This document shows, in pieces, positions 3,838 to 40,088 of a DNA stretch of 64,000 nucleotides. The number at the start of each line of letters is the position of its first letter. Within the stretch, counting starts at the first letter, position 1. This DNA is from a virus. The notes beneath the pieces are model-generated. The model was not told where the DNA came from and searched no databases. It worked only from the letters and a program-made list of their open reading frames with translations. The DNA lies in the IMG/VR virus record IMGVR_UViG_3300043466_001759, positions 1 through 64,000 of that record, one strand, 5' to 3'. Made by a program: the position numbers and the translations under genes.

Positions 3838-4278
3838 ATGAAGGGTTTTTGGTACAACGTGACGTTCGTTCGGGGCTCCTCCCGCAGGTCTTACGCGGTC
3901 TCGGCCGCCTGCATCGGTAATGCCAAGGCTGCTGCATGGTGCCGTCTCGAGGATACTGAGGGCACTCGCGAAGGGTGGTCACTCGTGATGGTTTCTGAAT
4001 TCAACAGAGGTGAGACCAGCTTCGCTAAGGCAGGAACGCTGGTTGCATGCATTAAAGATGGCGCAAAGCTGTCTGGCAAAGTTATCAGCAATGATAGCGG
4101 CAATCTTCTGATCCAATGGCGAGACTTTCCCCATCCGATTTCGTACACCCCGTTTCAAATCATGGACATGGGGATCACGACTGGCGAGCACACAAACACG
4201 CCGGTTCAAAAAAAGTTCGAGCCAAGTGAGCAAAGCGACTGGTCGTATCGTCGAGCTGAGGCTGGATACGGCCAGTAG
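3838..4278 (+). CDS. Hypothetical protein
   Basis: ORF 3823..4278; GGAG before ATG 3838. Confidence 0.65.
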   Translation: MKGFWYNVTFVRGSSRRSYAVSAACIGNAKAAAWCRLEDTEGTREGWSLVMVSEFNRGETSFAKAGTLVACIKDGAKLSGKVISNDSGNLLIQWRDFPHPISYTPFQIMDMGITTGEHTNTPVQKKFEPSEQSDWSYRRAEAGYGQ

Positions 4279-4332
4279 GCTCGGTGGGGTTAGGCCGAGT
4301 GCGGCGAGGGAATTTTTCTCCCTCGCGTCCCC
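4279..4332 (+). ncRNA. Structured RNA motif copy 1 (putative pseudoknot)
   Basis: gctcgg-t-GGGGTTAGG-ccgagt-GCG-hairpin-GTCCCC; three copies with covariation. Confidence 0.65.
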
Positions 4333-5614: not shown

Positions 5615-5879
5615 GATCAAACAACTCAAGGAGGCTATTCGACACCCGTACGCATGGCCCGGTGGCTACGAAATTTCGGCAGTTATGAACGATGGGGCGA
5701 GCCTGTGCATGGCTTGCTGCAAAGATAATTTTCGCAACATCGTAGACTCGACTAAGAAACAACTCCGCGATGGATGGCAACTAGAAGCAGTCGACGTCAT
5801 CTGGGAGGGTGATTGTCGATGCGAGCAATGTGGAAAGAACCTAGCAGTTTACGAGGACGATGAAGACGAACAGGCTTGA
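5604..5879 (+). CDS. Hypothetical phage protein (YAWPGGY motif, CxxC pairs)
   Basis: 91-aa ORF overlapping the previous stop. Confidence 0.75.
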   Translation: MASKIKQLKEAIRHPYAWPGGYEISAVMNDGASLCMACCKDNFRNIVDSTKKQLRDGWQLEAVDVIWEGDCRCEQCGKNLAVYEDDEDEQA

Positions 5880-5922
5880 TGGGGTTAGGTCAAGTGCGGC
5901 AGGTCGAGAGGCCTGCGTCCCC
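5874..5922 (+). ncRNA. Structured RNA motif copy 2
   Basis: gcttga-t-GGGGTTAGG-tcaagt-GCG-gcaggtc(GAGA)ggcctgc-GTCCCC. Confidence 0.65.
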
Positions 5923-5966
5923 GATGACACAATGTCAGCAACAAATACAAACAGGAGATCGAGACA

Positions 5967-6935: not shown

Positions 6936-6980
6936 ACTCGGAGGGGTTAGGCCGAGTGCGGCACCTTCGGGTGCGTCCCC
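6936..6980 (+). ncRNA. Structured RNA motif copy 3
   Basis: actcgg-a-GGGGTTAGG-ccgagt-GCG-gcacc(TTCG)ggtgc-GTCCCC. Confidence 0.65.
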
Positions 6981-8774: not shown

Positions 8775-8857
8775 CATCGAGACAGCTGGAACACGAGGGC
8801 ATTGAAAACAGTGCCCGACTGTTCACGCTAAACCGATTCAAACTAAGGAGAGTTGTT

Positions 8858-8983
8858 ATGTTGAAATGGATTTTGACTTTGGCAGTTGTGTTGTTCTGTG
8901 GATGCGCAGGACAACGAACACGGATCACACTAACGAGGGTTCATGGCGAACCATCAATCAGTATCGAGCTTGAGGAACGATAG
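8858..8983 (+). CDS. Small putative lipoprotein (41 aa)
   Basis: TAAGGAG RBS; MLKWILTLAVVLFCG/CAGQR signal peptide with lipobox-like cysteine; below the ORF-track cutoff. Confidence 0.65.
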   Translation: MLKWILTLAVVLFCGCAGQRTRITLTRVHGEPSISIELEER

Positions 8984-8987
8984 GAAA

Positions 8988-9197
8988 ATGAGCGACAGAA
9001 ACACTACTGAAAAAAAGACATGCGAATGCGGCAGGGTATCAACCTATTTCGTGTCCCCTAACAATGGCAAAAAGCTGTTGCGAGGCTTTTGCGACTCATG
9101 CTACGAAGATAGATGCCGCAGAGAATCCAACAAACGGCTGGACAGGATCCAGAAGTTTAGAGATCGCAATCAATACGACAGGGAAGATCAATCCTAA
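8988..9197 (+). CDS. Small zinc-finger protein
   Basis: CECG...CDSC; start refined. Confidence 0.6.
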   Translation: MSDRNTTEKKTCECGRVSTYFVSPNNGKKLLRGFCDSCYEDRCRRESNKRLDRIQKFRDRNQYDREDQS

Positions 9198-9206
9198 AGA
9201 ACTAAT

Positions 9207-9379
9207 GGCTTGTCACGGCAATGCCAGTCTAGGCGGGATAAGTCCTGGCGTGACGTGGCAAGGCAAGGCAAGGCAAGGTTTCATGCATCGGCTGAAAAGT
9301 CGGTGCGTGGATTTACTGCGGCCCGGCGAGACGGAGCAAGTCGCGATCGGGCATGGCGTAGCATGACGAGGCAAGGTTT
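9207..9379 (+). ncRNA. Pentamer-periodic guide-like array block A (units 1-2)
   Basis: In-phase 5-mers ggctt gtcac ggcaa tgcca gtcta ggcgg gataa gtcct ggcgt gacgt ggcaa x4 ggttt; hairpin 9282-9309; second unit 9310-9379 ending ggcaa ggttt. Confidence 0.85.
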
Positions 9380-9446
9380 CAACTGCTATCAGCGAGGCAG
9401 TTTTTAAGTTCGCTGAAACATGGTTTTGTGCGTTAAGGATTTCAGT

Positions 9447-10004
9447 ATGAAGAAGGCAATTTGCAAATTACAGTCAGTCAGTCCGTATTCTCAATCGAGG
9501 TACATCCAAGAGAAAAGAACGCGAGACGAAACGCCAGCAGCGTTCGAAGAGCGATCCTGGAAGCAACGGTGCCATTGGAACGAAAATGGCAATCTTTACA
9601 TTCCTCCAATGTCGTTCAAAAACTGCTTGAGTGAAGCAGCAAAATACAAATCCATTCAGATCCCAGGAAAGGGAAAGTCGACATACACCAAACACTTCGA
9701 GGCTGGGATTCTTGTTGTCGAGCCTCTAGTTCTCGACATTACGAAAGACAGTATCCAACACGAATGGCTGCACGTCCCCTCTGACGGCAAGCGTGGAGGA
9801 ACAAAGCGTGTTGAAAAGTGTTTTCCGTTGATTCAGTCTTGGTCTGGCACTGTCGAGTTCTTGGTGTTGGATGAGACTATCACTGAGGATGTTTTCACAG
9901 CACACCTCCAAGACGCAGGGAGCTTTATTGGTATCGGTCGCTTCCGTCCGCGTAACAACGGCTTTTACGGTCGTTTTGAGGTAAAGTCGGTGAGTTGGAA
10001 ATAA
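9447..10004 (+). CDS. Stand-alone Cas7/RAMP-like RNA-binding protein (VIPR-like effector candidate)
   Basis: LYIPPMSFKNCLSEAA resembles the RAMP IPGSSxKG motif; C-terminal Gly-rich loop GIGRFRPRNNGFYGRFEV; TAAGGA RBS before ATG 9447; flanked by the periodic arrays. Confidence 0.8.
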   Translation: MKKAICKLQSVSPYSQSRYIQEKRTRDETPAAFEERSWKQRCHWNENGNLYIPPMSFKNCLSEAAKYKSIQIPGKGKSTYTKHFEAGILVVEPLVLDITKDSIQHEWLHVPSDGKRGGTKRVEKCFPLIQSWSGTVEFLVLDETITEDVFTAHLQDAGSFIGIGRFRPRNNGFYGRFEVKSVSWK

Positions 10005-10007
10005 TCC

Positions 10008-10447
10008 GGCAGGGTTAGGCTTTGCGCGTCGCGGCTCGTTGCGGCGTTGTGCGGCAAGGCAAGACAAGGTTTCATGCATCAGCTGAGAAGTCGGTGCATG
10101 GATTGACCTCGGCACGTCTCGTTGGTGCAGGGCAGGGCCCGGCGTGGCGCGGCTAGGCAAGGCAAGGCAAAGTTTCACATCTGAGGCGAATAGGCTCAGG
10201 TGTGAATTGACCGTGGCACGGCGAGGCATGTTATGACTCGGCGCGGCAAGGCAAGGCGAGGTTTCCTATCTGGGGCGAATAGGCCTAGGTAGGGATTGAT
10301 TAGGGTTTGGCTGGTCGGATCACGACAGGTCGGGGCTCGGCTAGGTAAAGCAAGGCAAGGTTTCACAGCTGGAGCGAACAGGTCCAGCTGTGGATTGGAC
10401 TCGGCATAGTAGGCCGAGGCGGGGCGTGGTAAAGCAAGGCAAGGACT
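10008..10447 (+). ncRNA. Pentamer-periodic guide-like array block B (units 3-7)
   Basis: Five phased 5-mer tracts (10008-10072, 10101-10175, 10205-10264, 10294-10363, 10393-10447) separated by hairpins at 10073-10100, 10176-10204, 10265-10293 and 10364-10392. Confidence 0.88.
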
Positions 10448-10470
10448 TTTTTACAAAGGGAACAAAGGGA

Positions 10471-10947
10471 ATGTTATTTGAAAAATCATCAGACACAAAG
10501 ATCTTAGAGGACACGCTTAGGCAGGTTGCAGTAGGTGACATGGCCACTTACGAAAACCTGTCAAAAGCAATTGGAAGGGACGTTCGAACGTTTGCGATCG
10601 CTGCACTACGTACAGCCCGACACGGACTCATTAAGGAAGGGTTCGTGTTCGGCGTCGAGCAGAATGTCGGACTCGTCAGGCTTAACTCTACAGAGATCGT
10701 CAAGAGCACAGAAATGGATCGAAAGTCGGTGCATCGAAAGGTTAATCGCACACTCAGCAAACTAAGCGTTGCGAAGTACGATGAGCTCGATGACGAGAAT
10801 AAAAGAAAACACGTCACGATGTCAGCGCAGATGGGTGCTCTGGCGATGTTTTCAGCGAAGACGGCAACCACGAAGATTGAATCTAAAGTCACTGGCGACT
10901 CGAAAGTATTGCCAGTCGGCGAAACACTGAAATTGTTTGGTGGGTAA
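10471..10947 (+). CDS. Array-embedded accessory protein, putative N-terminal winged HTH
   Basis: GDMATYENLSKAIGRDV...ALRTARHGLIKEGFVFGVEQNVGLVRL resembles a wHTH; the upstream ORF extension is array sequence. Confidence 0.7.
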   Translation: MLFEKSSDTKILEDTLRQVAVGDMATYENLSKAIGRDVRTFAIAALRTARHGLIKEGFVFGVEQNVGLVRLNSTEIVKSTEMDRKSVHRKVNRTLSKLSVAKYDELDDENKRKHVTMSAQMGALAMFSAKTATTKIESKVTGDSKVLPVGETLKLFGG

Positions 10948-10956
10948 ATACAACAC

Positions 10957-11170
10957 GGCGGGGTTGAGCCGGGCGAGTTAAAGCCAGGAGCGGTGCAGTA
11001 ACGCAAGACAAGGTTGCTTGTCGTGAGCGAATAGGTCACGACAAGTATTACGCATGGCACGTCTTCACTTGAAACGGCGGGGCGATGCGAGGTGGAGCGT
11101 GTCGGAGTAAGTCTCGACAGGTCGCCACAAGGCAAGGTTGCTTACCACGAGCGAACAGGTCGTGGTAAGC
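10957..11170 (+). ncRNA. Pentamer-periodic guide-like array block C (units 8-9)
   Basis: Tracts 10957-11016 and 11046-11140, each followed by a 10-11 bp hairpin with a GCGAAYAGG loop. Confidence 0.85.
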
Positions 11171-11199
11171 ATTTATAGATCTCAATCGGAAAGAACACG

Positions 11200-11829
11200 A
11201 TGGCTAACGTTACAACAACCGACAAGATTCCAGCGTTCTACACACTGGAGAAGATTTACGAGTCGATCGATAAAGTTAACGACAGCTGCGCCGATGGACA
11301 GCGAATTGATTTCTGGATTGCTGGGGGATCCGTTAGCGATCTGGCCAGAGGGAGGCGATTTAAGGACATCGACGTGTTCAGCCCTAAGCCTGTGGAGCTA
11401 GTTGAAAAGCTCTCTAGAGCCTACGGAAAACCGTATTCAGAGATCGTTGGAATGTTTGCTAACTTCCGATTGGGAAAGCATACGGTTCAAATCATAACTG
11501 GATACACACCAGCAAGCGAAGACGAAGTAATCGAGCTATTTGACTTCACAGCTGTTTGCGGGGCGTACTCACCCGATAGATTCGTATGCCACGAGAGATT
11601 CTGGCAAGACAACTGCACGAGGCGATTAGTGATCAATAATTTACCAAAGCCTCTATCGACACTAGATCGATTGGCTAAGTACTGTCGCAAAGGCTTCAAG
11701 CACTGCCCTGTCGGGTTGTCGCGAGTCATAAAAGCCATCGCAGCTGAAAACATCGACTGGGACAACCCTAGTCAAAACATAATCAACTTTTACCCAAATG
11801 GCCACATACGGTTTTTTGGGATCGATTAA
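11200..11829 (+). CDS. Nucleotidyltransferase (Pol-beta superfamily, CCA/poly(A) polymerase head-like)
   Basis: IAGGSVSD...KDIDVF catalytic motif, FDFT, RLAKYxxKGF. Confidence 0.8.
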   Translation: MANVTTTDKIPAFYTLEKIYESIDKVNDSCADGQRIDFWIAGGSVSDLARGRRFKDIDVFSPKPVELVEKLSRAYGKPYSEIVGMFANFRLGKHTVQIITGYTPASEDEVIELFDFTAVCGAYSPDRFVCHERFWQDNCTRRLVINNLPKPLSTLDRLAKYCRKGFKHCPVGLSRVIKAIAAENIDWDNPSQNIINFYPNGHIRFFGID

Positions 11830-11861
11830 TCAACGCTTTATTTTTATTGAAAGGGAAACCA

Positions 11862-12353
11862 ATGCTTGTATTAGGAAGAAAAGTCGGAGAGTCAATCACT
11901 ATCAACGGCGATACCGTGGTAACAGTAAAGAAGCACAGCAGCAAGATCTTTTTGGCGATCGAAGCTCCCGATGACGTATCGATCAAACGAACAGAATTAC
12001 TAACCATAAAAAGAGACGATGAAACAGATATCAAAGCTATCTTACGATTGGATTGTCGCTCTCAGGAATTCCCTAGCGAAGAATGGTTGCAGTCACTCGG
12101 ATTTGTTATCAACGAATCTGAGCATGCTCTTTTTGCTACAGCATTACTGGACGACTTCTCGGGCAATTGCCATCCTGCGCGTGTCGAGCTCAGGCTTATG
12201 CTTTTTGCCGATCAGACTGACGAGTGGGTCACTGACGTTGTGTCATACGATGCAAGTGGGACTGCGTCTTCAGTTGGTCTGGTAAACTCCTGGTGCAAGA
12301 CCAAGGCTGATGTCATTCGACTTGGCAAAGCCCTCGGTCTTAAAGCTTGGTGA
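11862..12353 (+). CDS. csrA: CsrA-like carbon storage regulator domain fused to an unknown C-terminal domain
   Basis: MLVLGRKVGESITINGD...LAIEAPDDVSIKRTEL matches the CsrA consensus. Confidence 0.8.
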   Translation: MLVLGRKVGESITINGDTVVTVKKHSSKIFLAIEAPDDVSIKRTELLTIKRDDETDIKAILRLDCRSQEFPSEEWLQSLGFVINESEHALFATALLDDFSGNCHPARVELRLMLFADQTDEWVTDVVSYDASGTASSVGLVNSWCKTKADVIRLGKALGLKAW

Positions 12354-37400: not shown

Positions 37401-40088
37401 GCCACGAATCTGAGCTGTCCTCTCCTTGTCCTCGACAAAACTGCCGTTCTGCATCTTTCCGACACGAACGACTGGAGCCCCTCCACGAGGATGCCAAGCA
37501 TTGTCCAATACGGACTTGTTGACTCCCCTTCCTCCACTCCAGTCTCTTACTCTCGCTGAGTAGTTCTTCCATATCTTGGAACCGAGGCCTTCACCGCCAG
37601 TTGCTCGCCCTGTACTGTCGACCAGCCCAGCACCTTCTGACGTTGTCCATGGATGAGACATGCCGCTAATCATCACGGTAGTGTCGCCATCCTCAAACCC
37701 CATGCCTCGCATCTCTTTTTCCAAGCTCGAGACGCCCTCAATGGTTCTCTTTTCACCAATCAAGTTACTCTTAGATCTTTCGTACTGGTCTTTATACCGA
37801 GCGTCACTCTTTCTTACTGGACCACCCTCAGAGCCTTTAAACAACTCTTGACGTTTCGACTCTATCTCATCTTCTGAGAGCTGATAGGAGTCTGCCGCAG
37901 GAACATCCTTTGCATCGGACGACTTCGCAGCCGACTCAGCCGGAACAGAGGCCTTCTGACTTGGGAACGCCGTTCTTGCCTGTTCCCATTGCTCTCGCCT
38001 TTGATTCTCGTCTGGTGCTTGCGATGCATTGGAGTCATCACCAAAGATGATCTCTGACCACTGCTCGGGACTAGGTGCACTTTCTAAGCCAGCAAATTTC
38101 CGACGTATCTTGTCATACTCTTGCTTGTCTGATGGGTTATCAAACACTGGCTCTTCCTGCTTAGCTACTGACGTTGCGTCAGCTGGCTTTGATCCTGTGC
38201 CTTCACTCGAAGATCGCTGTAGCTCCTCTCCTCCGTCCTTTACTTTCTGATACACATTCCTGGCTGCATCCATACTTGAATGCTCGCTGGAATAGATCTG
38301 CTTACCACTCCCAGTTTCAACAGAACGAACTACCCACTTCTTTCCGTCTTCAGACTCAAAGAGCTCGTGGCGAACACCATTGTCAAGTTCTGTGATTTCA
38401 TCAAGCTTCTTTGCTGGCTTTCCGGCGATCGACACCTTCTCGTCACCGCCGACTGCATCACTTAGCGGCTGGCTTACTGGCTGACCGGTAGGAACAGGCC
38501 CTACTTGGCTTTCGGCCTGGGCTGCTTCTTCTGCGACTGGCTGGACTTCTTGCCTGCCTTGGGCTTGGATTTCCCCGCCTTGAGGCTCGCTTTGGGGTCG
38601 TACGGCATTCTGTTCTCCTTGGTCGACTTCTGGTGGACCAGCAGGCAATGACTGATCAGACGAAGCCTGAGAGGCCCTGTCATTTATGAGTTTCTGTCCT
38701 GCCTCCCACTGCTCTCTCCGGACATTTGCATTGGGAACTGTCTTGTCATCACGAAGACCGGGATCACCCAGTACGATCTTAGCCCACTCGCTACGGCTTG
38801 GGGGCTCTTTAAGGCTTCCTATCTGAATCGATATGTCATCTATTTTTTGTTGGTCTTCAGGACTTACCTCATCAGCCGATTGTTTTGCAACAACCTCTGC
38901 GTCGTTTCCAGTATTGACGTCACCAGTCGGAGCAGGCGACTGGCCGACTGGCGCGATTGCGACCCCTTCAGCAGGCAGCTGATCAACCACTTGATCGTCA
39001 GGAACCTTCCTTCCTGTTCTTTTACCGACAGCGGCAGATAATCCACTTTGTGCACCACTGATTACGCCACCACCTAAAGCACCCGCAGCCGACGCTTCGA
39101 ACCATTTCATCCAGGTTTCTCGATCCGTAATCTTGTGATTCGGATCAACTATCTCTGCATTTATGCTCTGCAGCATCTCCTGGAAGCCCTCCTGGACGCC
39201 TTCCGAGCCAGAGCTCTTTACAGCGTCCCACAGATAAGCAGCTGCCGCTTTATTCCCAGATTGCTTTGCTATTTCGCCAGCGCCTATCTTGTTGATGAAT
39301 TTCATCAAAGACGGGGTCGCTCCAAATGCAACTTCGGATGCTCCAGATACTTGACCTAACAACAGTGCTGTAAAAGGACTGTCGATACCCTTCTCTCTTT
39401 GTTCGCCATACATGCCACCGCCTTCATGTAAAGCTGTGACCTGCTGGGAGGCGACTGCACCGCCAGCCTTTTTAGCTAAAGAATTGTAAACAAGCTTCTT
39501 GGCGGATTCCTCTGCAACTTCTTTTGTAGCTCCTCTGATTACATACTCTTTAGCTATGTCCGCGATCTTTTTCTTAATTGCTGTTTTTCCAAGAAAGCCA
39601 GTGATAGCACCGACAGGAACAGTAGCAACGTCAGCAGGATCAGGACCAGGAACCAACATAGAACCCGCTGCTGCACCAACGATCCCAGTACCAACAGATT
39701 CTGCTATAGATGGAGCTAACTCCCCTAGAGTACCAGCTGCCCATGTTGCCATGTTTCCAGGGCCTGCCATAGCACCTGTCTTTTCATCAGTAGAAAAGAA
39801 GTCTGTGACTGTCTTTGGGTTTTCAGACGCCTGCTCCATTTCCTTCTGATATTTTTTGAAACGTTCTCTAGCTGCAGATTCATTGCCCATTGCGGAGTGG
39901 TACGCGGCAATACCACCGTGATAGGTAGCCTGCGTCTGGTCGATGCCTCGCAGCAAACCTCGATACGCTTCGCTTCTGTTTTTTAAGTTGTCTTGAGTTC
40001 TTACCGCAGACTCTCTCTTGATCCTCATCAAAGAAAGTTGGTCAGCGAACTCTCCGTCGTCCATAACATCAACTTCAGGTGTTGCCAT
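25500..40088 (-). CDS. Giant polyvalent internal virion (ejection) protein, 4862 aa
   Basis: Hydrophobic Gly/Ala N-terminus; HEAFH zincin motif; TMDLWWSR; HDAFGH; GNAT-like block; two ART-like FKKWFGD...YHGT...GYDGV...KSATxNxGxFD domains. Confidence 0.9.
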   Translation of the reverse strand: MATPEVDVMDDGEFADQLSLMRIKRESAVRTQDNLKNRSEAYRGLLRGIDQTQATYHGGIAAYHSAMGNESAARERFKKYQKEMEQASENPKTVTDFFSTDEKTGAMAGPGNMATWAAGTLGELAPSIAESVGTGIVGAAAGSMLVPGPDPADVATVPVGAITGFLGKTAIKKKIADIAKEYVIRGATKEVAEESAKKLVYNSLAKKAGGAVASQQVTALHEGGGMYGEQREKGIDSPFTALLLGQVSGASEVAFGATPSLMKFINKIGAGEIAKQSGNKAAAAYLWDAVKSSGSEGVQEGFQEMLQSINAEIVDPNHKITDRETWMKWFEASAAGALGGGVISGAQSGLSAAVGKRTGRKVPDDQVVDQLPAEGVAIAPVGQSPAPTGDVNTGNDAEVVAKQSADEVSPEDQQKIDDISIQIGSLKEPPSRSEWAKIVLGDPGLRDDKTVPNANVRREQWEAGQKLINDRASQASSDQSLPAGPPEVDQGEQNAVRPQSEPQGGEIQAQGRQEVQPVAEEAAQAESQVGPVPTGQPVSQPLSDAVGGDEKVSIAGKPAKKLDEITELDNGVRHELFESEDGKKWVVRSVETGSGKQIYSSEHSSMDAARNVYQKVKDGGEELQRSSSEGTGSKPADATSVAKQEEPVFDNPSDKQEYDKIRRKFAGLESAPSPEQWSEIIFGDDSNASQAPDENQRREQWEQARTAFPSQKASVPAESAAKSSDAKDVPAADSYQLSEDEIESKRQELFKGSEGGPVRKSDARYKDQYERSKSNLIGEKRTIEGVSSLEKEMRGMGFEDGDTTVMISGMSHPWTTSEGAGLVDSTGRATGGEGLGSKIWKNYSARVRDWSGGRGVNKSVLDNAWHPRGGAPVVRVGKMQNGSFVEDKERTAQIRGVLEEALNFSQAKPSDKKSTDTTSAPKESKKSMGRENKLNAKSSESVPPPSKTGSTPPLLPKSATPPPLKQRTSSGDKSPAQVEAKSSDAVSVEPVRNQEDKDAPQTKRGGDPSEVQTEERREGQTNAQTKAEGQVSPEKPEGQATAGTPSSDSSSSKQKEAPKPPARPKRDSNEASKPKEESRKKAVAEKYLNELSPGQREAIAKSLTESLGTEVTVNDLVNNPGLVDAIVAISPARKSKTKPKKAASSRNRQAAKEDVPKQLGNVTLVSSEELSDDEKQQVKILDKMGVSMRFVNGRDLSLPGLFRPSTMTIWINRNYVTNMNRERGENSKWMTWGLFAHEAFHAMKVGNPEAWNQLYNWVSKHESSKEQDGLKKAGEDYIGDFDRELLSSVRADIKRSGKAVDVDKDVSGQDLLKAALKAGLKYDIFNKDGSLKEKGDLSQKTKDLSDFINEFNSNEDIRQEESLSRYLEDRAGDFDFWNELGNSKPGLLAKIGRWLRKALRFAEPDTLAGQVRLAIESAMESNGISPSSGGRASPARSSENQDSEASRVAEIRESARSATPDEHDALIAIANKHSKRDFVKSDITPSRIKNLKSNGLVVGSKLTPEGLDRLRSWDKKRKQAIAREAKLAGVDPDMAVYGLRVEKNKPWLLTEDIISNGIDTSLIPQDLEARSDSQKNNLKRTKWDVAQWLQSLYKKASGHSLSPNSKHSKSAKARMANQLAKEALHALKMDWAEGAIGWYNEKVTGALDHMADIFPEIVAPGKHQMMFKAALAISSDGQDVLPNFRMAVEIYERWKKTGTLSGWGHRSGVESSLDTMDKLVKKFGWERVEAFLATPLTAAQLSKHGFTVEDGIDPSISISKESFKVGGELVTARVYGSMIFGAKIGSFYNNLNYRFDTITMDLWWSRTIGRLRGKLESVNVENAQKSIDNGLRKNLSDKYLKKFGMSREDVARNDRAALRYARMLKSHNASVFTSTAISSYVSAIKKADELGSIENGSIQQFAPVDPSKLNANEKKFYGQLSEKIGNSKVAGKVSSESIAGMARDAIARRTEVNTTEFKAAKNVVVNAYGLYEIAKSGKDREVQREVAELAIKQVKEVIGKDITKADFQALMWYYEKELWGKLGLSKEIEKLDYEQAAKKVSQEHRASKRDGRRESISSGQRVSPEATGRAQSTVQSGEDAGSGRELDGGEYAGSGADGTRAGVGRQRPESAGDGRGRKDLRKNSPLAGSPSVPGINGPDPEVVAVAERYAKENGIDLKRQAEYVQVDPERAKRIADAYEQMAHAPQDPKVKAAYKELIRQTTAQYKALEDAGYKFWFMDLNVPSNAEYASSPYNALRDLRQNKQMGVFPTSDGFGTSDLDVNDNPLLEDTGIKWPSGGLDGQMKPVTANDLFRAVHDAFGHSLEGAGFRARGEENAWQAHVRLFTGDAVGAITSETRGQNSWLNYGPHGDKNRTAKVEDTTFADQKTGLMPEWTWTEGRAADYSETTDRESTDGTTEKDGSEDRSRKTRERAAVAKRSGREATATIRSRVGSNGRAWSRSEESRTLGGYGVVATYEADAAEWADVGVAAPSFVELQKSEKSASQFTAAINAARESQGKLGASVYVYPEQDYRDMRLFLTEDGKAGFALKDSGEAGVVDIVSVFNTANNAHRGVSYSMMRLAVEEGGNTLDAFDTFLPVLYSANGFRVISRAKWSDEFAPSGWSKEEYSDFNNGEPDVVFMAYDPQRTDIYRHNSGEGKAFDDIDEAVRSQRSAAIENATALDSRDLNSGLRYAIARPELAKELDKGETVTLYRAMTMIDGNLYPPMSSKINDGKKLSLRKPEPVGKWMVAEERPDLVPKTGKYAGKFPLKKPKGTTWAAYAPYFHASPIPLNDQFTASWYNDGVKRPKMVIVEVEVPASEMTSGYQAEGSSKKVGSNKWTAGVVASKLPGGREVVLSRYLRIKRIVPDAEVAKKIADIVNPSRLSIPENTVTPQLRAELEKNGVRISPKGTKGESIRYSPSRQVDSPAFKKWFGDWENDPENSSKIVWNGQPLSLYHGTKRDFNVFEGKAKTSTDGGYYGKGYYFTTDSEGAGRYAGRGDGSRILEVYVDIKNPAIINDTYRDNTADALSMSGGKLDYVDAKVAKVFNDVYDGDPTSHLDPEKSIEITKRLKEAGYDGVIVNQSDLPFAEVVAFDSSQIKSATGNRGTFDKFDPDIRYSPSRQDEMFAKLMKAMEERGLAKPGQSSLPETTGTKYARTEGQRKSVGDSPREWFGPRKVKDRQKKAIAELAANPGRPYEIISEMNAKPRPLTDMEDAILNARIRELKNEGDISGSDRKEWLDLNRTVQRGHSEWGYAGHAAQAELASDFSVEGLTRQHTSHVEADPSPEQIAKYAEMAERIDKLEAETAALAEKLAKEAIARKKAEAASVPKTDPPREKIGTKRATLMKKVADGFAAFQNAWGGGSSGRAAVSRSAITNVNGFGFGTDTLPDPSTVSRDEWLRAYMPLIMKAIPESKLSDEDIAVLGTVFGDENPFKADSKLMRMFSKWTVQSDLQERNWAEGVQALFRDRSRGTRMMLEQIASESGVEFDEDRFSDPSDYKALANSFVKYLPKYVSSNPDIGSEVTNLLDASKVILDPLEYAIKAWEDAQGGAGGSQIDTAAFKKWFGDSKVVDEDGNPLVVYHGTNEKFSVFESGRTSQRSVMLSSFDVETSGFFFSPSEDDARQYGKNVLPVYLSVQNRLMDPKVIGISSRSSEEVKAASAKAFEDAEYILEPMIYEEGGKRWIDTGGGVSNTEVDSDGDWINEIFIDGMIDWHALDNPKVVERMKERGYDGVKVYEENDGSGESWFVVESSQVKSATSNTGDFDKTNPDIRYSPSRQGTDIKSAADSIVNALREMGVSSVLELESQVKANMPNVTLEQMSVIKDAWAESNSKKKVESPIGDDPEPSAIGARAKELMTLAIEAGYGATNETWREVVDVVHAQLSIEVPGISEYDTMQAMSDYGSWRPLNKEEIAVKTRAIRGKTRQSLKIEDTIKAIAQSEEWLKNGVSPEEVARRLRDQNLLPKSTGREQPTPDSIERDLIAEFNKLKKELPVSTESREGQLKSALSTAKTAGKNRLEMLSKDIEALEEAIESRTVLARSVNDRTPLKPDAELASIRSQLEAKRKQRDDLKTEYEKIFPRSKKQRMLSAEQQTQRALKAIEKLKEKLQQVKDGKEVDSTKKPSLVAAEVQSQLKMWQDRLRAARQAAAEAEQGRYDDDGGAIPAQGGRKPMTEEQRLAMAERMLQSQIDDIKADTKSLTDGTWAPAVKGKVPTSSVLESLRAQLADLRKVRDEARKASPVYQAREEAKYWERYRKGQERRLAFWEKRRDEAKSGILPVPRNKRTITEEDILDKNLEIEKIKYEAMYEIEKAKRATWNAGQWMQYGLLEATSLIPKTLMLGMELSFFLRQGFFYSRSHPVRAFMAAVEAIPAVWSQRLALASVESLESRPNAKEYLQAEVEFTKKDGPRAQLEEMYQSAVIRWLENTKTPWLLPFRAWVGAYGAFERGNRTFANIMKADLYDIQKRDTLAAREFFGTNMEWTDSDIKEAGRITNIFSGRGTGLRGGSPWLDFFFLARRWTWSRIQADFILPLQLATPSWIGQWNADRGMRVSLAKLYIQTLMGHATKMAMGYFAYSLLAGDDEEKEPTIEWDPRSSDAWVMKVGETRFKDDGGLMPAVVLASRLLTGTIKTSSGEIKSIYGEDVQYGGKTGADFLINFARYKLGTGPASILEWVSGKDAVGRNIAKEGDPLAVPKHIIGSRLTPLTWKEIAAAEKELGVVSGTLASLEAFFGVSVSTYGPRTEYSGASDEEKKELFDKDLRGMKWDDKDLAYSDSLSGSQKKQARDAQQKKKQSLVYAASANPSRKNYKSDQAYKDAVTSRDEYMKTLKKSGISMTEARRLLIEHWEDNYGSAKETKKGVVVYKEGLSLRLRQLRKVFTN

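Follow-up and report, generated by a model that had tools for sequence, protein, structure and literature searches.

A probable VIPR locus with nine guide RNA genes in an uncultured freshwater phage

VIPR (Viral Interference Programmable Repeat) is a virus-against-virus silencing system, first described in 2026 and encoded by a minimal vipr–vap phage locus (10.64898/2026.04.26.720920). It represents a recently reported form of RNA-guided DNA recognition with a gapped code and has been proposed to predate CRISPR. Its guide RNAs (vrRNAs) have 9–16 YNNGG repeats with a variable dinucleotide (NN), frequent internal degeneracy, and an invariable structured tail (10.64898/2026.04.26.720920). Seven types have been reported, all with a GGY/NN or related consensus; array architecture, repeat consensus, and vaps vary among them, some have DNA-binding vaps, and targets of types II, III, and V were predicted with the same skip rule (10.64898/2026.04.26.720920). 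In the structure solved for Escherichia phage SUSP1, one Vipr protomer occupies each repeat, GGY is sequestered by two neighboring protomers, and NN pairs with DNA such that every third target base is skipped; W178 and R179 hold G2 and Y3, and D177 reads G1 (10.64898/2026.04.26.720927). Here we describe a locus of about 2 kb (9207–11171) in a 64,000-nucleotide stretch of viral DNA (positions 1 to 64,000 of IMG/VR record IMGVR_UViG_3300043466_001759; hereafter, the window). With a probability of roughly 0.9, we identify it as a VIPR system comprising vipr, nine genes for vrRNAs, and a vap-type gene; all of these lie on the plus strand.

For comparison we used the type II locus of SUSP1 as a reference (10.64898/2026.04.26.720920; 10.64898/2026.04.26.720927; PDB 36pp). 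Both are minimal phage-borne loci free of cas genes and of a CRISPR array. They share a single small repeat-associated mysterious protein (RAMP), homologous between the two; a two-gene vipr–vap core whose accessory protein is predicted to bind DNA; vrRNAs on both sides (upstream and downstream) of the genes; and a constant structured 3' tail. The tandem GGY/NN pentamers number 10–17 units here, against 9–16 in the published vrRNAs. Unlike SUSP1, for which four guides are reported, the present locus has nine, each ending in one to four constant xxYAA units, and its triplet is looser (G-N-Y). The tail is a plain 12- to 14-bp hairpin with a variable stem and conserved flanks, whereas a pseudoknot is described for the SUSP1 clade. 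Vipr identity is about 25%, and the vap gene, which has no detectable similarity to the SUSP1-type neighbor gene, may belong to a family different from the studied one. A first-pass annotation, made from the letters of the window, had named VIPR as the likely match; the homology to SUSP1 Vipr (E 6e-10) and the fit of the arrays to the published vrRNA definition bear this out. The features of the locus, in order, are as follows (z, folding z-score):

9207–9311, plus strand: vrRNA 1; 14 five-mers, the last four GGCAA; GGTTT anchor at 9277; 14-bp hairpin at 9280–9311 (z -4.8)
9310–9407, plus strand: vrRNA 2; 13 five-mers, starting GATTT; GGTTT at 9375; terminator-like hairpin at 9381–9402 and T-run
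9447–10004, plus strand: vipr; 185-aa Cas7-like RAMP with G-loop GIGRFRPRNNGFYGRF
10008–10102, plus strand: vrRNA 3; 12 five-mers; GGTTT at 10068; hairpin at 10071–10102
10101–10206, plus strand: vrRNA 4; 14 five-mers, starting GATTG; AGTTT at 10171; hairpin at 10174–10206
10205–10295, plus strand: vrRNA 5; 11 five-mers, starting AATTG; GGTTT at 10260; hairpin at 10263–10295
10294–10394, plus strand: vrRNA 6; 13 five-mers, starting GATTG; GGTTT at 10359; hairpin at 10362–10394
10393–10453, plus strand: vrRNA 7; 10 five-mers, starting GATTG and ending GGCAA GGACT and a T-run, without hairpin
10471–10947, plus strand: vap-like gene; 158 aa, predicted N-terminal winged helix and C-terminal helical hairpin
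10952–11047, plus strand: vrRNA 8; 12 five-mers; GGTTG at 11012; hairpin at 11015–11047
11051–11171, plus strand: vrRNA 9; 17 five-mers, of which five at the 5' end fit the triplet poorly; GGTTG at 11136; hairpin at 11139–11171 (z -6.0)

Vipr and the accessory protein

Judged by sequence comparison, the 185-aa protein is Vipr, a homolog of the characterized SUSP1 Vipr, with a Cas7-like fold in its predicted structure. A search with phmmer against all PDB chains returned a sole match, 36pp_D ("SUSP1 Vipr protein," E 1e-5), and a profile of 30 homologs matched the same chain at E 6e-10, with the next match at E 0.037. BLASTP aligned the protein to a Felixounavirus Vipr homolog over 179 residues (25% identity, E 1e-12). 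Pfam gave no match, and in PHROG the protein matched family 4652, of unknown function (E 6e-16). An in-frame ATG upstream, at 9420, would extend the protein to 194 aa; most of the homologs listed have 185 aa.

The RAMP hallmarks claimed in the first-pass annotation were found: the open reading frame (ORF) contains the motifs IPPMSFKNCL and GIGRFRPRNNGFYGRF, and within the latter, the G-loop, residues G158, G162, R167, G172, G175, and R176 are invariant in 30 homologs. The AlphaFold2 model (predicted local distance difference test [pLDDT] score of 92.2) agrees: its top Foldseek matches are Cas7 subunits from type VII (E 8e-8) and type III effector complexes, and Csm3 and Cmr subunits are matched as well (E 8e-8 to 1e-4; 97 matches at E<=0.001). 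The fold library searched seems older than the solved Vipr chain. In the alignment with SUSP1, D177-W178-R179 lie over R165-F166-R167, so that the aromatic residue and the arginine that contact G2 and Y3 are kept as F166 and R167.

The protein resembles Cas7 of class 1 systems (types III and VII; Csm3/Cmr4) in its RNA recognition motif/RAMP fold with G-loop and, by analogy, in placing one protomer per fixed RNA step. Unlike class 1 CRISPR-Cas, the locus has no repeat-spacer array and no Cas5/6/10/11 or adaptation genes; the period is 5 nt, not 6, and target reading would involve only two bases in every five. The absence of cas genes and of a repeat-spacer array had been claimed in the first-pass annotation and held up across the window. 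Cas models assigned none of the 68 window ORFs (E<=1e-5), giving only generic helicase/ATPase matches on two replication genes, and Tandem Repeats Finder found no repeat-spacer array, the repeats here having a period of 5 and no spacers. A multi-gene cas operon with a repeat-spacer array, the mark of class 1 CRISPR-Cas, was thus not found in the window.

The 158-aa protein encoded 3' of vipr had been described earlier as resembling a winged helix-turn-helix, and the structural model points the same way. In the model (pLDDT 91.9), residues 7–70 follow the winged-helix order (helix-strand-helix-helix-strand-strand) and are followed by long helices. Foldseek matched it to GntR, MarR, and BusR regulators (E 0.02–0.3) and VIA-align to the winged helices of ScpB, NSE1, and PurR (Z 7.5–7.7, a range the tool calls common); these predicted fold matches are weak but consistent. 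At the sequence level, Pfam assigned the protein to no family and gave nothing at E<=0.01 for 21 of 22 homologs and one SWIB row (E 0.0053) for the other, and a PDB profile search returned only rows with E 0.03–0.9, including methylguanine-methyltransferase DNA-binding domains. We call the gene vap-like because of its position, its conservation, and its predicted DNA-binding fold, not because of homology to a named vap.

Pentamer tracts, hairpin tails, and related loci

Three non-coding blocks (9207–9407, 10008–10453, and 10952–11171) hold nine plus-strand tracts of in-phase 5-mers. Lag-5 self-similarity was 0.435, 0.455, and 0.364 in the three blocks, compared with 0.26 in the two ORFs and 0.252 in the whole window, confirming the 5-nt periodicity noticed at first reading. 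In a scan of the 64 kb with 100-nt windows at 10-nt steps, 19 windows exceeded the mean by more than 4 standard deviations, and every one of them started within 9171–10301. Tract phase was set by reading 5-mers backward from each GGTTT-like anchor. The number of tracts given in the first-pass annotation stood, and the length given there (11–19 units) did not: the tracts have 10–17 units, or 11–18 counting the anchor.

Of the 116 units, 114 have C or T at position 3, 90 have G at position 1, and 74 have G at position 2. GGC leads the triplets (49 units), followed by GTC (12), GAC (nine), AGC (seven), and GGT (seven). Among the NN pairs, AA occurs in 29 units, for the most part the constant ones at the 3' end; the other pairs are mixed. 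All nine tracts fit the published vrRNA definition of at least four tandem YNNGG/GGYNN units adjoining vipr with a conserved triplet and variable NN; the looser triplet here falls under the internal degeneracy and related consensus that the description of VIPR allows (10.64898/2026.04.26.720920). Their ends also proved much as first described. Six internal tracts start with RATTK (reported earlier as GATTG-like), and all nine close with one to four xxYAA units, followed by GGTTT (five tracts), GGTTG (two), AGTTT (one), or GGACT (tract 7).

The hairpin said to follow most tracts is present, with 12–14 bp, at seven of the nine (z-scores of -2.3 to -6.0); tract 2 has a terminator-like hairpin and a T-run just 5' of the protein gene, and tract 7 has a T-run alone. 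Stem sequences vary from unit to unit while pairing is maintained. When the seven hairpins are aligned, pairing holds in 93.9% of cells, compared with 31%–43% when partners are slid by one to three columns. Of 14 pairs, 11 have changes on both sides, and the covariation score was not reached in any of 500 shuffles. Several positions hold G-U pairs, which are A-C mismatches on the opposite strand. Since these pairs are kept in compensating stems, the constraint acts on plus-strand RNA. They are also why an inverted-repeat search (60-nt limit) found none. The loops read GCGAAYAGG in five hairpins and GARAAG in two, and the flanks are conserved (CAAGGTTKC ... GRATTG). The invariable structured tail of VIPR guides is therefore represented here by a hairpin and not by the pseudoknot of the SUSP1 clade. 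Most likely, the constant 3' module of (xxYAA)1-4, GGTTKC, covarying hairpin, and GRATTG would cap the filament and mark the boundary between adjacent vrRNAs.

The Vipr family has 3661 proteins at E<=0.001, and the first-pass annotation had expected 5-nt arrays to adjoin such stand-alone RAMP genes in other phages. Among 80 IMG/VR loci, an array of at least eight GGY-like units adjoins the gene on the same strand in 61; with this GGY-biased caller, 12 loci have an array on the opposite strand only and seven have none. Counting all arrays, the vipr strand carries 175 and the opposite strand 32. A composition-blind period-5 detector found arrays in 85 of 100 sources; by its reading, most of the exceptions are plus-strand arrays built on other triplets (GAC, CGC, GTC, CTC, and GTT). 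The terminal xxCAAGG motif recurs at array ends in related loci. The accessory gene is conserved too: a homolog of the 158-aa gene adjoins vipr on the same strand, upstream or downstream, in 61 of 101 loci, compared with none of the 101 for five other neighbors of the present locus. Because the arrays and the 158-aa gene recur and the other neighbors do not, the conserved module consists of vipr, the arrays, and the vap-like gene. Separately, a 61%-identical prophage group (locus L039 and others) was considered as a bridge to the published P. fulva locus and set aside, its flanks being those of Burkholderia phages and not of Pseudomonas phages.

Proposed mechanism, target searches, and competing readings

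By analogy with SUSP1, Vipr protomers would align one per pentamer, with adjacent protomers sequestering the GGY triplet and exposing the NN pair. The exposed pairs would read double-stranded DNA with one base skipped per unit (NNxNNx). Binding would silence transcription of a rival mobile element, and the winged-helix Vap would assist on DNA.

Several results weigh against the VIPR assignment. The protein shares only about 25% identity with SUSP1 Vipr, and two functionally tested SUSP1 contacts are not conserved (D177 lies over R165 and R138, in the thumb, over F126). The triplet is looser than GGY, with GGC or GGT in only 56 of the 116 units. The winged-helix assignment of the vap-like protein draws on weak matches (Foldseek E>=0.02; VIA Z 7.5–7.7), and the protein has no sequence similarity to the product of the gene 3' of vipr in SUSP1-type phage (E 0.17). 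That the tract RNAs are made and bound by Vipr is a prediction from sequence. Target searches, in which NN pairing was scored for guides against shuffled guides, belong on the same side. In the phage's own genome, no guide beat its shuffled versions at skips of 0, 1, or 2, and the matches at skip 3 were the guides themselves; with the 1-nt skip, no guide rose above the shuffled-guide level in the 101 related loci either. A search of IMG/VR with exact 8-unit seeds (16 specified bases) covered seven guides (all but 5 and 7) and gave 16, 9, 118, 27, 22, 4, and 28 matches per guide. When these were rescored with full guides, extension past the seed was near chance.

Two individual leads were examined and dropped. 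Guide 4 matched a conserved structural gene of T4-like cyanophages (phrog_358) over nine consecutive units (18/18 bases); all 118 matches belonged to this one gene family, and no other guide matched a complete 193-kb record of that kind. Guide 1 matched a tail-fibre-like gene in two small viral contigs at 19 of 20 variable bases; guides 2, 3, 4, and 9 gave no matches (<=3 mismatches) in that record and four others. A metagenome scan with 20 specified bases of guide 1 returned one exact match, in a 5-kb contig that the other guides do not match, equal to the chance expectation.

The distance to SUSP1 raises the question of whether the locus encodes an RNA-guided Vipr system with a different output: one that reads RNA, follows another skip rule, or uses Vap for a role other than aiding silencing. 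The roughly 25% identity with loss of D177 and R138, the unrelated sequence of vap, and the lack of a target under the 1-nt skip rule would all suit such a system. We nevertheless consider it improbable. The G-loop aromatic residue and arginine that hold G2 and Y3 are kept, and the seven published types all have GGY/NN or a related consensus, with targets of types II, III, and V predicted by the same rule (10.64898/2026.04.26.720920). The failure to find a target says little, as seeds were exact over 16 nt and the collections may lack the rival element. The same failure, together with the 60 of 116 units that are neither GGC nor GGT, could also be taken to mean that the locus is decaying or orphaned and that its arrays are non-working leftovers. 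This is very unlikely, given that the vipr and vap frames are intact and retain residues invariant in 30 and 22 homologs, respectively; all nine tracts hold phase and tail; seven hairpins hold their pairing through compensatory changes; and working vrRNAs are reported to show internal degeneracy often (10.64898/2026.04.26.720920).

Origins and operators typically feature repeat-dense intergenic DNA beside a DNA-binding gene, and the tracts might act as DNA, either as iteron-like sites for the winged-helix protein or as a replication or packaging signal, and not as RNAs. We give this reading almost no weight: on the opposite strand, the G-U pairs retained in the hairpins would become A-C mismatches; arrays in the 80 related loci favor the vipr strand by 175 to 32; and the neighboring protein is homologous to one reported to bind such RNAs. 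Taken as VIPR, the locus contributes one more natural case, well preserved and from an uncultured freshwater phage, to a kind of system that is already published, and it leaves existing knowledge of VIPR unchanged. With nine guides, a clean hairpin tail, and a conserved accessory gene in about 2 kb, it offers a compact test of the SUSP1 rules in a distant branch.

The variety of triplets among relatives suggested a further, tentative idea. Of the 85 sources with arrays, 46 have GGC as their commonest triplet, 16 have GAC, and 12 have CGC; the rest have GTC, CTC, GTT, GGT, GCC, CAC, or ATT. The triplet is tracked by two protein positions. The G-loop residue over SUSP1 D177 (R165 here) is Arg in all 46 GGC sources and Phe or Tyr in nine of the 16 GAC sources. 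In the thumb, the residue over SUSP1 R138 (F126 here) is Phe in all 46 GGC sources and Tyr in 11 of the 12 CGC sources. Many of the rows behind these counts are close relatives and not independent events. It is possible, though we think it doubtful, that the constant triplet is itself a lineage-specific password, with protein and RNA coevolving in this Vipr clade. If so, phages could protect Vipr from hijack by the solo vrRNAs of rivals, a counter-move that has been described (10.64898/2026.10.15.759431). Under the same condition, the (xxYAA)n-GGTTKC-hairpin-GRATTG module of the present locus would serve in processing and capping as a unit resembling a CRISPR repeat.

Genomic surroundings

The window comes from a complete 72,858-bp virus record (a 72.9-kb phage) with direct terminal repeats, encoding helicase, primase-like, and exonuclease genes and an HNH endonuclease. 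The phage sequence is present in lake-water DNA runs (18 public runs listed, none of them RNA). Contigs from four of these runs are identical to the window wherever they cover it and are therefore uninformative on guide turnover. A sigma-70 promoter scan gave matches at chance level, and an Rfam search of 8800–11400 found no ribozyme or other family at E<=1 save one chance row for a long non-coding RNA.

Immediately 5' of vrRNA 1, a small ORF (8943–9197, plus strand) contains cysteine pairs (C-x-C ... C-x2-C) suggestive of a zinc ribbon; Pfam and PHROG returned no match, and related loci do not keep this ORF beside vipr. Two genes 3' of the last vrRNA, a 168-aa ORF (11847–12353, plus strand) carries a CsrA domain at its N terminus (residues 6–53; Pfam PF02599, E 9e-12). 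The ORF 5' of it (11200–11829) is nucleotidyltransferase-like, matching phrog_4400 (E 1.4e-11) and phrog_1614, which is annotated as nucleotidyltransferase (E 3.5e-5); its Pfam PolyA_pol match (E 0.027) fails the cut-off. Neither of these two ORFs is kept beside vipr in the 101 related loci. Farther away, a single 4862-aa ORF (25500–40088, minus strand) takes up a fifth of the genome and has no PADLOC match.

Finally, three pistol-ribozyme-like copies (4261–4332, about 5869–5925, and 6942–6980, plus strand) lie at gene boundaries in the plus-strand early block. Two of them score 29.1 and 22 bits against Rfam RF02679, under the 34.5 cut-off (E 6.4e-5 and 0.0028 per genome), and the start of vrRNA 3 (10014–10045) carries a faint echo that is not significant (9.2 bits, E 2.3). 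The copies have in common a core, GGGGTTAGGYCRAGTGCGGC, a variable hairpin, and GTCCCC, and one helix shows compensatory changes (CTCGG/CCGAG vs. CTTGA/TCAAG).

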